From NCBI RefSeq assembly GCF_036971445.1, contig NC_091469.1, positions 8,742,001-8,806,000 on the forward strand: 64,000 nucleotides of DNA, written 5' to 3'. Origin of the DNA: Narcine bancroftii. Taxonomy: Eukaryota. The translations under genes and the position numbers were made by a program. Below are positions 13,385 through 60,420 of this stretch, in pieces (the first letter of the stretch is position 1; every line of letters starts with the position of its first letter). Under the pieces are notes generated by a model. The model saw only the letters and a list, made by a program, of their open reading frames with translations, did not search any database and was not told the DNA's origin.

Positions 13385-13960
13385 GCCAAGAATGTTGCCA
13401 GGGCTGGTGAGTTGAACAGTAAGGAGAGGTTGGATAGGCCAGGACATTTTTTTCTGTTTGTAGGAAGGGAAGGGGAAACATTTTAGTTCTTTATAAAATC
13501 ATGAGGGGGATGGATAAGATGAATGGTTGCAGTCCTTTTCCCCATGTAGGGGCATCTAAAAGGAGAGGGTGCAGGTTTGAAGTGAAAAAGGGAACAAGAA
13601 GCCACCCTCAAGGCAATGCTCATGGCAACTCTTTGTCTGCCTTACAAAATTTATCATGTATATTACAGTTTTAACATATTATGTGACATTTAGAATGAAT
13701 CATTTTAACTTTTCATCCATTACATGGCTGGAAGTAGTGAGTCAATGGAGCCAGTCACCAAAATGGTGGGTCTGTGGGTTGAACTGCCAGAAGAAGTGAT
13801 AGATACAAGGCAATTGTCATGTTCAAAAGGCATTTAGACAGGACCATGAATGGGATAGAGTTAGAATGACATGGGGTGACTGCAGGGAAATGGGTCTGAT
13901 ATGGTAGGCATGCACAAGATGGGGTGAAGGGCCCGTTTCCCTGCTGACAAACTCTATGAT
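13385..13960 (+). mobile_element. Old CR1 3' fragment carrying a foreign insertion at about 13594-13766
   Basis: gagaggttggatagg, gaactgccagaagaagtg, gggtgaagggcccgtttcc 3'UTR motifs. Confidence 0.75.
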
Positions 13961-15718
13961 CAATAGCCCATATTAAGTCTCATCTATATTTTGCACAAGG
14001 AGTTGAGGGGGTGGAGGAGGTGGGTGAGCATTGACTCGTATAGCATCGGCAGACCCATTGTCCAATTCCCGGGAAATGGGTTTGATGCAGATCTCCAGTG
14101 GGAGCTTTTCTAAACTTTCTATTTCTATTTCACCCTGGTTAGACTGATCTCCTCCCACATCCCAAAGACCTGATGGTTAAATTACCCCAGATTAGGGTGC
14201 AGAATTGAGGGAGTTGATGGGTGCAGGAGAGAGAATGGTTTCCAGGGGAATTTAAATCCTCTGAGAGCTGATAAAGGTGAGATGGGCCCAGTCCTACTCA
14301 TATTTCATAAGAGAAGAAAGGAAATAAGAAAACATCTTAAACCTCACTTCAAAATATGACCTCACTTTGTGGACACTTAGTGTTCCTATTACACAATTTC
14401 TGAATTGTTAGTTTCTCCGCCTTCTCCCAATGGTAACAAGTGACTCTTTAAGTAACTACTAACTGGGGTATTTCCAATTGTTCTTCAGTTTCACATCAGT
14501 AATTGACAAGGTGTACCAATTTACCTAACCAAAACAAATATGACTTGCTTCACAAGGGATTCAAAGGTGAATCCACTATCACAAATTAGTTGTTGTGCAG
14601 GGGAGATTATTATCCATATCTGTCCTACATTTGACTGGCCCTTTATTTCCAGAGTTCAAGATGGAATAGAGGTTAAACACATTGGCATCAGGCAGCAAAA
14701 GACATCCAGGTACAAAATATCTCAGTGTCATCATCTCTAATTTGCTATTGTCTTTCTAGAAATATCTGGTGTTCTTCAGCTAATATGTAATTTAACGAAG
14801 ACACATCTGGTCACTCTCGTAGTCAGCGCAGATAAGGAAATTTTAAATTTAAATAAAAATCATCCACTCGTGCAATGTCCGCCATGCAAAGGATAGATGA
14901 CTGGGAAATATCAAAGGGATCTGTAACTAATTGTTAATTCTCCATTTTTTTTATTGAGTGGATTATCTTTTTAGCTTCATAACTTGCCCCCCCCCCCCCC
15001 CTCAGGTTAATTCTGCTGATTTATTTCCACTGATCAAAACATTGAAATGAATAGTCCATTTGTTAAAATCTTAAATAATTATCAGCTGAATGTTACAATC
15101 ACCACATTTCTCTACCCTGGAATTAAATGGTAAACTCAACGTTATATCACTGACAAGTATTGTGATGAGTCTTTGTTTGGTGAGCATGTATTCTTCATTG
15201 ACAGAATGTTCAAAGTACAAATTTATTTTCAAAGACCATGCCTGACAACACATACAACCCCTAGTTTCTTTTTTCCTGTGTGTCAGGTCTAATTTCAACT
15301 AATAAATAATGAGCAAAGTAAGTCTTTACATGAGGATCTGATTGAGTTTGTGGTTCAGGGAATTTAGGGAGGGACCACTGTATGAATTGGCTGTTCAGAG
15401 CAGGAGCCATTGTCTGGCGTCCTTCAGGATATGGGATATGGAAGATAATCAGTGGTGGCCTTGGAGAAGAAATGTTTTGTTCAAAAATATGAATGTGTAA
15501 CAGTAACGTGAAACATGTTGAAATGTTGTCTGACATTTAGGTGTTTCTTTCCAGCATTGTTCTCCATTTTGGTGACTGGCTCCATTGACTCACGACTTCC
15601 AGCCATGTAATGGTTGAAAAGTTAAAATGATTCATTCTAAATGTCACATAATATGTTATAACTGTAATATACATGATAAATTTTGTAAGGCAGACAAAGA
15701 GTTGCCATGAGCATTGCC
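13612..15718. repeat. Inverted duplication, arms 13612-13766 and 15564-15718 (155 bp, 3 mismatches)
   Basis: Direct base-by-base reverse-complement comparison. Confidence 0.95.
14060..14300 (+). mobile_element. Degraded SINE remnant
   Basis: ctcccacatcccaaagac core typical of fish V-SINE/HE1-like SINEs. Confidence 0.4.
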
Positions 15719-16305
15719 CTGTGCTCCTAACAATAAGAGAAAGTGAAAAAGAGACCCTTTAGTGACATTGAGTGTCTGTGGATTTGCCTCTAGCATGCCT
15801 GCAGCCTCTGCAGTCACATAGACTCGTGCACCAAAAACATTGGCAGCCCGAGTTCCAGGTCCAAACCTCCGATTTGATCAGGGAGCCTTCAGCACCCATG
15901 ACCCTTCGGGATCTCATCTTGGCCTCGGGACCCTCCCAAATCTTGGTACCCAGTTCCATGAGCCAGACTCCGGCAGCCCGCAGCCTGTGTGGGTCCTTCC
16001 ACCGCAAGTCGCCAGCAGCCCACAGCCTATGTGGGTGTTTCCGCTGAGCCCTTCGCTGGTCCACTGCTCCCCTTTAGTCTGCATTCCCTCTTGGTACGCA
16101 GTCCAGCACAGGCACCACCATCTTGAGCATGGTCACTGTGGTTGCAATGTTTTAAAGAAAACACTGTCAGCTCCTTTAACAGGCAGTTTAAAGCTGGATC
16201 GAAGCCGTCAGTATTTGGAGCGTGCAATAGGGCATTGGAGAGCAGTTCTGTGGGTCCACACCTTGCTCTCCTGATCCACACCCAGTGGTAGCACTGCCAT
16301 TTTGT
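15633..16305 (-). mobile_element. Non-autonomous retroelement (possibly Rex1/L2-related bipartite)
   Basis: GC-richer non-coding body starting aaaatggc on the minus strand; 3' end shared with 5550-5890. Confidence 0.5.
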
Positions 16306-16944
16306 TTTGTAGGATTTGGTAACTGCATTCTGCTGAATCTGAGTTCTGCCGTTACCTTTACTGCAGTAACTACAGCATGGTTTCATTAATGAAGATCTCT
16401 GTTGCTCCTTTATGCACACAACTCTTCCAGTCCACTTGATGCCTGCGGCAGAGTATTGAAGGTAACTGTGCTGTAAGAGTGATTAGTCTCCCTCAAAGCA
16501 TTGCAGTTCAGCAGTTTGCAATCAGACAGTTTTCAGTGGTGTTACATCTGAGTAAAGGCTCAATTCAGTGTAAAAATAACTCATTTTATATGCAGACCCA
16601 CTGAAATCTCCTTGTCAAAGGACAGCAGAACTAATGCTGACAAAACTAATCAGTAACAAGTCTGATATTGAGGAAAACAAGGAAACATTTCCAGTCATAT
16701 CACTACCTGCCCTTTGCCCTGACTGAGCAATTCCCTCTTTTCTTATTTGAAGCAATAGTCCACAACGTTTTCCAAATATTTTTGCTGCTTTCACATTCAA
16801 AGACATTGTCTAAATAATCCTGACTAGTAGAACACAGGCATAATCAGGCTTGTGTTGTTGTTAAGATGTTTTTTTTTTCAGTTGTGTCTTTGCACACGTT
16901 GACATCACTGTACAGTATTGTAGAATGCTCTAACATGGATAGAA

Positions 16945-58384: not shown

Positions 58385-58645
58385 GAGCGATGGGTGAGTG
58401 AATGGGGAAGGGGCCCTGAGTCAGAGTGGCAGGGGGCAGTGTCAGAACAAAGGGTGGAGTTGGAGCAGGGGCAGAGTTGTAGCAGCGTGGGGTGGAGTCT
58501 GAGCGACGGAAAGAGCGGAGTCAGCGTGGCAGGGGGCGGAGCTTGAGCGAGGACAGAATCGGAGCGGGGTAGGGGCCGGAGTTGGAGTGGTGGTGGGGTG
58601 GAGTCAGAACAGAGGAGTGGAATCAGAGCAGTGGGAAGGAGGCAA
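58385..58645. repeat. G-rich degenerate repeat (ggggcggagtcagag-like), source of the 59732-59816 copy
   Basis: Recurring ggagtcag/ggggc motifs. Confidence 0.7.
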
Positions 58646-58679
58646 CACACCCATGGCTAAGGGCATTTTAAATATTTCT

Positions 58680-60420
58680 GCCAGATCCCCTGAAATTTCT
58701 ACACAAGCCTCCATCAAGTTCTAAGGGAATAACTAGTCAGTCTTGGGAATTTATGCACCCTTATTTGCTTTAAGACAGCAAGCACTTCCTCCTCTTTAAT
58801 CTGTATAGGTTCCTTGACCACACTGCTTGTTTTCCGTACTTCCCACAACTCTGTGCCTATTTCCTGAGTGAATACTGATTAAAAAAAAACATTTCAGACT
58901 TCTTCCATCTCTTTTAACTGCATACAAAGCCGACGACTCTGATCTTCAAGGGGACCAATTTTGTCCCTTACTATCCTTTTGTTCTTAATATACCTTTAGA
59001 AACCCTTATGATTTTCCTTCACATTGTCTGCCAAAGCGACCACACGTTGTCTTTTAGTCTTCCTGATTTATTTCTTGAGGAATTTCTTGCATTTGTTATA
59101 TTCCTCAAGTACCTCATTTGTTCCATGTTGCCAATATCAGTTGTACACCTCTCTTGTTCCGAACCAGATCCCCAATACCCACAAAAACCAAGGTTCTCTA
59201 TACCTTCTAATCTTGCATTTGATCCTGACAGGAATAAACAAACTCTGTACTCTCAAAATTTCACCTTTGTAGGTCTTCCATTTACCTTGCACATCCTTGT
59301 CAGAAACATTCTATCCCAATCCAAGAATTCTAGATCATTTCTTATCTCCTCAAAGATGGCCTTTCTCCAATTTAGAATCTCAACTTGAGGCCCAGACCTA
59401 TCCCTCCCCATTATTAATGTGAAACTAATTATATTATGATCATTGGAACCAAAATGTTCCCTTACACATAATTCTGTCACCTGTCCTGTCTTGTTTTCTA
59501 ATATGTGATTCAGTATTGCACTCTCTCCAGTTGGTACCTCTATATATTGATTTAGAAAACTTTTCTCAACATATTTGACAAATTACCAGCCACCCAGCCC
59601 TTTTACAGTATGGGAGTCCCAGGTTAAAATCCCCTACTATCACAACTTTGTTTCCTACAGCTTCTGCTATCTCTCTACAGATTTGCTCCTCCAAGTCTCA
59701 TTGACTATTGGAGGGTCTATAATACAACCCATGAGTGAATGGGGAAGGGGCAGAGTTGTAGCAGCGTGGGGTGGAGTCTGAGCGATGGAAAGAACGGAGT
59801 CAGAGTGGCAGGGGGCCCCCTGCCTCTCCGACTCCGAGACCCTTCCCCATACAACCCTCAGTTCCACGCATATAGCCTCAGTAGTCACGCCCTCTGATCT
59901 GTCCTGCCAGAGCACAGCTGTGATATTTCCCCTGATGAGCAATGCCACTCATCCTCCTTTCATCCCCCCAATTCAAAAGAAGCCCAGATTAATGAGCTGC
60001 CTGTCCTGCCCTTCCTCCAACCATGCCACAATGTAGAAATTCCACATGCCAATCCATGCTCTAAGCTTGCCTGCCTTTCCTACAATACTCCTTCATTGAA
60101 ATAGATGCATCTGAGAAAATTTCCACCACGTTGACTTCTAAGGGAGCATACAATTTTAACATAATCTTTTCCCTCCTCCACTGCTCTATCTGCTCTGACA
60201 CACTGGTTCCCCTCCCCCTGCAAATCTAGTTGAAACCCACTGGAGCAGCACTAGCAAATCTGCCCACAAAGATATTAGTCTCCTTCCCGTTCAAATGCAA
60301 ACCATTCCATCGGAACAAGTCCCACCTTGCCTAGAAGAGAGCCCAATGATCCAGAAACCTGAAGCCCTCTCTTCTACACCATGTTTTTAGCCATTTGTTA
60401 AGCTGCATTATCCTCCCAAT
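58680..60420 (-). mobile_element. CR1 fragment (ORF1 3' end plus EN), with foreign insert 59732-59816
   Basis: WDLFRWNGLHLN; ALLIRGNITAV; EHFGSNDHN. Confidence 0.85.

Follow-up and report, generated by a model that had tools for sequence, protein, structure and literature searches.

A 64-kb stretch of the genome of Narcine bancroftii (GCF_036971445.1, NC_091469.1, positions 8,742,001-8,806,000; hereafter the window, to whose positions all coordinates below refer) raises the question of why five short segments of its DNA occur twice, once in place as a donor (D1-D5) and once as a pasted copy, the acceptor, inside an older repeat. A preliminary description of these five pairs (P1-P5) regarded them as a candidate for an undescribed system. 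That claim of novelty has to be given up, since Pace, Sen, Batzer and Feschotte in 2009 already described a genome-wide class of repair-mediated duplications (RDs) with the same size, distance peak, acceptors in transposable elements (TEs) and junction marks (PMC2671141). We regard it as highly probable that P1-P5 are five independent RDs and, therefore, instances of a described process. The other part of the earlier proposal is supported, namely that nearby DNA is copied by a germline process of break repair or template switching that has acted repeatedly.

The five pairs were all recovered at the coordinates given below by self-alignment of the window, and their mismatches were counted by base-level alignment. 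In a catalogue of maximal exact matches of at least 16 nt, made without TE annotation, from which matches among four young RTE-type long interspersed nuclear element (LINE) copies and inside tandem arrays were set aside, all matches of at least 29 nt belong to P1-P5. The inserts are 85-227 bp long, and the gaps between donor and acceptor are 1797, 1814, 1851, 1186 and 1194 bp for P1 to P5, respectively; the probability that all five would fall below 2 kb by uniform placement is 9e-7. Mismatches amount to 3/155, 4/227, 2/115, 0/128 and 3/85, which bears out the approximately 96-100% identity reported before and gives a pooled divergence of 12/710 (1.7%) that is homogeneous among the pairs (p=0.42). 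The donors are five mutually unrelated sequences whose ends cut through element bodies, and no third copy of any pair above 93% is found within the window. The donor lies to the left of its acceptor in two pairs and to the right in three. As the preliminary description held, four of the five copies are inverted, but this bias is not significant (p=0.375); its statement that target-site duplications (TSDs) and tails are absent stands for the tails (5/5) and for the TSDs of P1-P4, but not for P5, which is flanked by a 9-bp direct repeat.

The acceptor of P1 (13612-13766, minus strand) is an inverted copy of D1 (15564-15718, plus strand) in the 3' part of an old LINE, while D1 itself lies at a unique/repeat junction, with the repeat starting at 15629 and showing 64% identity to 5624-5871. 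With the insert removed, the flanks are collinear with 5/5 aligned in-window paralogs of the LINE 3' end; about 28 nt of target were lost, and about 12 nt of filler-like sequence are present on the left side. The donor of P2 (D2, 19384-19621, minus strand) is a C-terminal reverse transcriptase (RT) region of a LINE, whose frame continues beyond both donor ends and carries a derived CpG-type stop codon. Its inverted copy (21436-21662, plus strand) replaces the centre of the fold-back element 21382-21737, the arms of which are 85% alike; 5 nt at the left junction are common to the host arm and the donor, and the insert carries an 11-bp internal deletion. The paralog-collinear flanks and the donor frame of P2 give the direction of copying. 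The acceptor of P3 (31276-31390, minus strand) sits in the loop of the fold-back element 31154-31598, with arms 84% alike, and D3 (33242-33356, plus strand) has no second copy in the window apart from this acceptor. Earlier labels stand for D1, for D2 as a LINE RT fragment, for D4 as single copy in the window and for D5 as a G-rich repeat; the presumed assignment of D3 to a LINE found no in-window support.

P4 is an exact inverted copy (38609-38736, minus strand) of D4 (39923-40050, plus strand), located in a miniature inverted-repeat transposable element (MITE)-like element at 38361-38867. Compared with the paralog 28010-28292, nothing was lost, and the first two bases of the insert replace two missing ones, i.e., a 2-nt microhomology; the end of the insert falls on the first base of a hairpin arm of 125 bp (fold z -4.9), and the right junction has no microhomology. 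A very young RTE copy (39081-39412) sits between the P4 acceptor and donor, so that these two may have been about 850 bp apart, rather than 1186 bp, when the copy was made. P5 lies within an old LINE, and its direct part (59732-59816, plus strand) consists of two pieces of D5 (58395-58537, plus strand), a G-rich degenerate repeat, with 58 bp skipped over a 6-nt microhomology. It is followed by a fold-back tail (59817-59857, minus strand), in which the end of the insert is repeated in inverted form and followed by 11 nt of the insert start, likewise inverted, and by the second copy of the 9-bp repeat, so that the insert is longer than first described and reaches about 59850. The whole insert is bracketed by this direct repeat, whose first copy is at 59722-59730; 59795-59836 folds as a hairpin (z -4.7), and one of the three mismatches vanishes if the donor repeat's other unit is taken as the source of the last 20 nt. 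Microhomology is thus seen directly at junctions of P2 and P4 and at the P5 jump. As a separate observation, the insertion point of the RTE copy at 9.6 kb (9650-10810) in an old LINE differs by no more than about 12 bp from the position paralogous to the P5 site (59720-59732).

A possible older sixth event, P0 (6994-7043, minus strand), matches 8996-9045 at 43/50 positions with a gap of about 1950 bp and enters no count beyond a single orientation and a single density calculation. P0 lies inside a copy of the hairpin family described below, and may be either an older inverted capture or one Penelope-like insertion whose two arms were separated when a LINE inserted later. Sensitive self-alignment gave no older event of similar size within 5 kb, barring multi-copy families, the ambiguous P0 and a 45-bp match of 78% (E 0.02). 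For the fillers of P1, P3 and P0, no local template longer than 8-10 nt, which is chance level, was found within 3 kb (for P1, none longer than 8 nt).

The RD class was defined by a screen for inserts of at least 50 bp interrupting TEs (PMC2671141). Among human RDs, the donor lies within 5 kb in 824/1136 with a peak near 1200 bp, and sizes have a mean of 162, a median of 147 and a maximum of 619 bp; poly(A/T) is absent in 39/39 proximal breakpoints, all of which show microhomology, deletion, filler or TSD (the last in 6/39), with junction microhomologies of 2-9 nt (PMC2671141). Human RDs are spread over TE classes roughly by abundance, examples have been validated by PCR, and the class has been found in ten vertebrates at a rate that is said to track LINE activity (PMC2671141). 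All of P1-P5 have their donor at a distance between 50 bp and 5 kb (1186-1851 bp), sizes inside the range of 50-619 bp and no poly(A/T) tail. An insert of at least 50 bp with flanks collinear within 30 bp is seen in P1, P4 and P5 against in-window paralogs, while in P2 and in P3 both flanks belong to a single fold-back element. Junction marks are the deletion and filler of P1, the microhomologies of P2 (5 nt) and P4 (2 nt), and the jump, fold-back and 9-bp repeat of P5. Each insert has exactly one other copy within the window, and D2, being LINE-derived, might fail the single-copy filter of Pace et al., which is a detection rule and not a mechanistic one.

The gaps of P1-P5 do not differ from those in 69 human rows of Table S1 of Pace et al. 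(median 1155; Mann-Whitney p=0.30). Those authors caution that the distance peak may be a method artefact (PMC2671141); the present pairs were found without TE annotation and yet lie at 1.2-1.9 kb, which offers small independent support for a real distance preference. Like RDs, P1-P5 interrupt an older repeat, leave an intact donor within 5 kb, measure about 150 bp and show microhomology, deletion or filler without a tail, as well as an occasional TSD and chimeric inserts. Unlike RDs, they are all young, compared with the mostly older human RDs listed, they possibly prefer fold-back hosts, and they are far denser: five in 64 kb correspond to 78 per Mb (95% confidence interval 25-182), against a published 0.08-0.65 per Mb of TE DNA (human 0.62, zebrafish 0.19; PMC2671141). 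A literature search for templated insertions, break fillers or local duplications in sharks or other elasmobranchs surfaced no paper on the subject, though it mostly missed subscription literature and does not establish absence in print.

The ages of the copies can be followed best in P2, which was polarised against the best 150 homologs of its LINE peptide from a full HMMER search; a word-indexed homolog search with the same peptide had given 0/8 candidates. At one site, the donor has a stop codon and the acceptor Arg, as in 142/150 homologs. At another, the donor has Pro and the acceptor Ser (Pro in 111/150 and Ser in 28/150 homologs), and at a third, where the acceptor reads Lys, the Glu of the donor is shared by 12 of the 20 best homologs, while the fourth difference is a CpG transition which the homologs do not polarise. 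Each copy, therefore, carries derived changes of its own, and both were mutated after copying, unless the acceptor represents the other allele of the donor. Across all pairs, CpG transitions account for 3/12 mismatches, compared with 1.2% per mismatch expected from random error (p=4e-4). P1-P5 are recent and uniform in age, and the RTE-type copies (0.6-5.9% pairwise) share their divergence band, an overlap with an RTE-type LINE burst that is a coincidence of ages in one window.

A scheme which we hold with good confidence would start from a germline double-strand break, or a broken fork, in an old repeat. The resected 3' end would prime on a microhomology of a few bases 1-2 kb away, on the same chromatid or the sister, and synthesis of 85-230 nt would follow, with occasional slips or fold-backs as in P2 and P5. 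Release and rejoining to the other end would then cost 0-30 bp of the target and leave the donor intact. We infer the break, the polymerase and the pathway from sequence that fits synthesis-dependent strand annealing (SDSA)-like repair and microhomology-mediated template switching alike. On slighter grounds, breaks may have been favoured at hairpin-forming elements during the same period as the RTE-type LINE burst, and the endonuclease of the RTE-type LINE could supply such breaks; the overlap in age agrees with the link drawn by Pace et al. between LINE activity and RD rate (PMC2671141). If a resected end folded back onto its own strand, both the inversion and the distance limit would be explained. 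In mouse, germline inverted insertions by such fold-back have an experimental precedent (PMC13532658).

Several observations weigh against reading P1-P5 as ordinary RDs. A strict polarity rule expected from fold-back fits P2 and was rejected, since it fails for P4, where the junction with microhomology is the one farther from the donor. The target loss of P1 (about 28 nt) exceeds the 1-15 nt in Table 1 of Pace et al. (PMC2671141). The gaps sit on two values (1797/1814/1851 and 1186/1194 bp), a pattern noticed post hoc that has a probability of about 0.0015 under the smoothed human sample and is unexplained. Equally post hoc, the identity that starts at the left junction is first broken by a mismatch after 59 nt in P1 (13612-13670), 62 nt in P2 (21436-21497) and 60 nt in P3 (31276-31335), which has a probability of about 0.003, is unexplained and resembles a k-mer length. 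P4, being 100% identical, cannot be aged, and the window contains two N gaps (37384-37560 and 45001-45129). Nor does the known model predict the density, which is some 70-125 times as high as the top published figure (1.1 per Mb for human when corrected for excluded TE donors, 0.62 without this correction). Finally, all support comes from one window of one assembly.

Some of these points would suit an artefact of assembly or library, in which heterozygous bubbles or chimeric molecules were placed in repeat gaps at distances set by library insert sizes. The N gaps, the clustering of the distances on two values, the 59/62/60-nt runs and a density far beyond published values all lean that way, and the uniform 1.7% divergence could be allelic. 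However, every insert has two seamless junctions with overlaps of 0-6 nt and restores its host almost in register, in P4 to the base. Gap filling by k-mers or overlaps needs far longer overlaps, and mate-pair junction chimeras are direct, not inverted, so the short overlaps count against an artefact. In addition, P4 has no variant from which a bubble could arise, the acceptor of P2 retains an ancestral codon that the donor lost, P5 has a multi-step fold-back anatomy, and the nearest N to any acceptor is more than 1 kb away. The derived changes on each copy of P2 likewise argue against an assembly echo, and we consider an artefact improbable.

Capture of a free fragment by end joining, from the sister or homolog and without templated synthesis, for instance after closely spaced meiotic or transposase cuts, seems to us as improbable as an artefact. 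Fragments released by double cuts in mutant mouse germlines measure 15-967 bp with a median of 95 bp (PMC13532658), either orientation would be allowed, and the right junction of P4 lacks microhomology. The mouse inserts, however, came from other hotspots and not from a 1-2 kb zone (PMC13532658), and the internal jumps of P2 and P5 as well as the P5 fold-back require synthesis.

Still less credible is the idea that a retroelement RT copied a local transcript into a break or nick, or that the inserts were captured during integration of a fold-back Penelope-like host, although the window holds an active RTE-type LINE from the same age band, P5 combines a 9-bp direct repeat with an internal inversion, and RNA-templated patches have been discussed for templated sequence insertion polymorphisms (TSIPs; PMC5110952). 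A retroelement-RT origin, which had been floated in the preliminary description, does not agree with the lack of any poly(A) or simple-repeat tail (0/5) and of TSDs in 4/5 pairs, since 3/4 RTE-type copies show TSDs of 8-12 bp; moreover, TSIP donors are distant rather than local (PMC5110952). The host arms are 82-85% alike, whereas the inserts are 96-100% like their donors, which places capture long after host integration. Lastly, that the pairs are chance neighbours from dispersed young repeat families is scarcely tenable, because, although D1, D2 and D5 hold repeat-derived sequence, five unrelated sequences that lack a third copy in the window all lie below 2 kb with ends running through element bodies.

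Other known systems resemble the preferred reading of P1-P5 as RDs only in part. Polymerase-theta templated insertions have templates close to the break and primary tracts that rarely exceed 10 bp (PMC7165422, PMC11541566); P1-P5 share with them microhomology priming, direct and fold-back templates and repeated rounds (P5 tail, P2 jump), but copies of 85-227 bp from 1.2-1.9 kb away are not short tracts, as the preliminary description had rightly noted in setting the two apart (PMC7165422). Repeated priming with fold-back is seen in the P5 tail only. Insertions at mouse meiotic breaks, observed in Atm or Mre11 mutants together with deletions where SPO11 cut twice, are likewise germline events with inverted local inserts needing resection, one-end microhomology and similar fragment sizes (PMC13532658). 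TSIPs of class 2 are comparable as DNA patches at breaks with marks of end joining, and experimental inserts measure 73-414 bp; their donors are distant, however, and class 1 has a TSD and poly(A) (PMC5110952). The combination of TSD, poly(A) and distant donor that marks class 1 or a retrotransposed copy is absent from P1-P5. The doublets of Thomas et al. 2004 are reportedly exact pairs of 25-100 bp, mostly on the same strand and spaced near 1 kb. The spacing of P1-P5 is similar, while they are longer and mostly inverted. Pace et al. link RDs to doublets, i.e., short local paired duplications (PMC2671141).

The hosts of the captures deserve attention, since 3/6 fold-back elements of the window carry a capture, in agreement with the earlier count of three such acceptors. 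Fold-back elements make up 2.6% of the window, and the excess of captures in them has p=1.7e-4, or 1.3e-3 at double footprint, for a category chosen post hoc. One hairpin family, which hosts P2, P3 and P0, has inverted arms and four motifs that resemble a hammerhead core. Such hosts are probably Penelope-like, a name suggested by the inverted arms and motifs in the sequence, without a ribozyme match in Rfam; Penelope-like elements have inverted pseudo-long terminal repeat (pLTR) arms with a hammerhead motif (PMC8557442). No Penelope-like RT or GIY-YIG remnant in these hosts was matched by Pfam in the scanned frames, and an Atlas search of the right flank of P3 gave no usable match. Translations of the P3 flanks contain pieces resembling the GIY-YIG motif, again with no Pfam or Atlas match. 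The MITE-like composite (28013-28860 and 38361-38867) has a core of about 115 bp flanked by two palindromic arms, each about 130 bp long, which in the 38-kb copy reach fold z values of -7.2 and -4.9. The other copy carries a 481-bp insert in a hairpin arm (28293-28773), which has no donor in the window and may be a retroposon, to judge from the simple repeat at its end.

The four young RTE-type LINE copies are located at 9657-10799, 23371-26900, 35418-35906 and 39081-39412. The one at 23.4-26.9 kb is near full-length with broken frames, and the three truncated copies have TSDs of 10, 8 and 12 bp. The pair 35418-35749 and 39081-39412, 3.3 kb apart, was considered as a further capture and rejected, as each copy has its own TSD. 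A 33-bp inverted piece at the 5' end of the first copy (9657-9689) resembles twin priming as known from L1. The window as a whole is repeat-rich; a Pfam scan of 135/180 open frames of at least 75 aa gave retroelement RT, endonuclease, RNase H and integrase domains and identified no host gene in these frames, with three weak matches below cut-off besides the retroelement domains. Rfam, run over the whole window, returned no ribozyme and a single weak snoRNA match below gathering score. Degenerate long terminal repeat (LTR)-retrotransposon remnants (RNase H, integrase) occur at 3851-4875 and 16824-17297, and a tandem array at 45938-46954 (105-bp unit, 9.7 copies, 96% matches) is fully resolved although N gaps occur elsewhere.

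If P1-P5 are RDs, their density becomes the main issue. At 1.1 per Mb, five or more events would have a probability of 1.5e-8 per window and 8e-4 over an assumed 50,000 windows, and a background rate of about 5 per Mb would be needed to expect one such window. The single-copy filter weakens this contrast, since if P1 and P4 alone are counted, the human rate would give two events in about 38/50,000 windows. The excess could reflect a lineage-wide burst or a local hotspot, and one selected window fits either. We tentatively raise, as a possibility with the odds against it, a recent RD burst at 10-100 times the published vertebrate density, with breaks aimed at hairpins (Penelope-like arms and palindromic MITE ends), a concurrent RTE-type LINE expansion and templates near 1.2 and 1.8 kb.

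The mechanism is a known one, and the importance of the finding hinges on whether the density holds genome-wide. The RD literature builds on about 800 human events and has yet to settle which pathway is at work, what governs orientation and why the distance is 1-2 kb. If the burst were true, events with a known age and direction would number in the tens of thousands in this genome, and the geometry of germline template search could be measured from them. With tens of events per Mb, template distance, polarity and the fragility of hairpins could be tested directly in a vertebrate germline.

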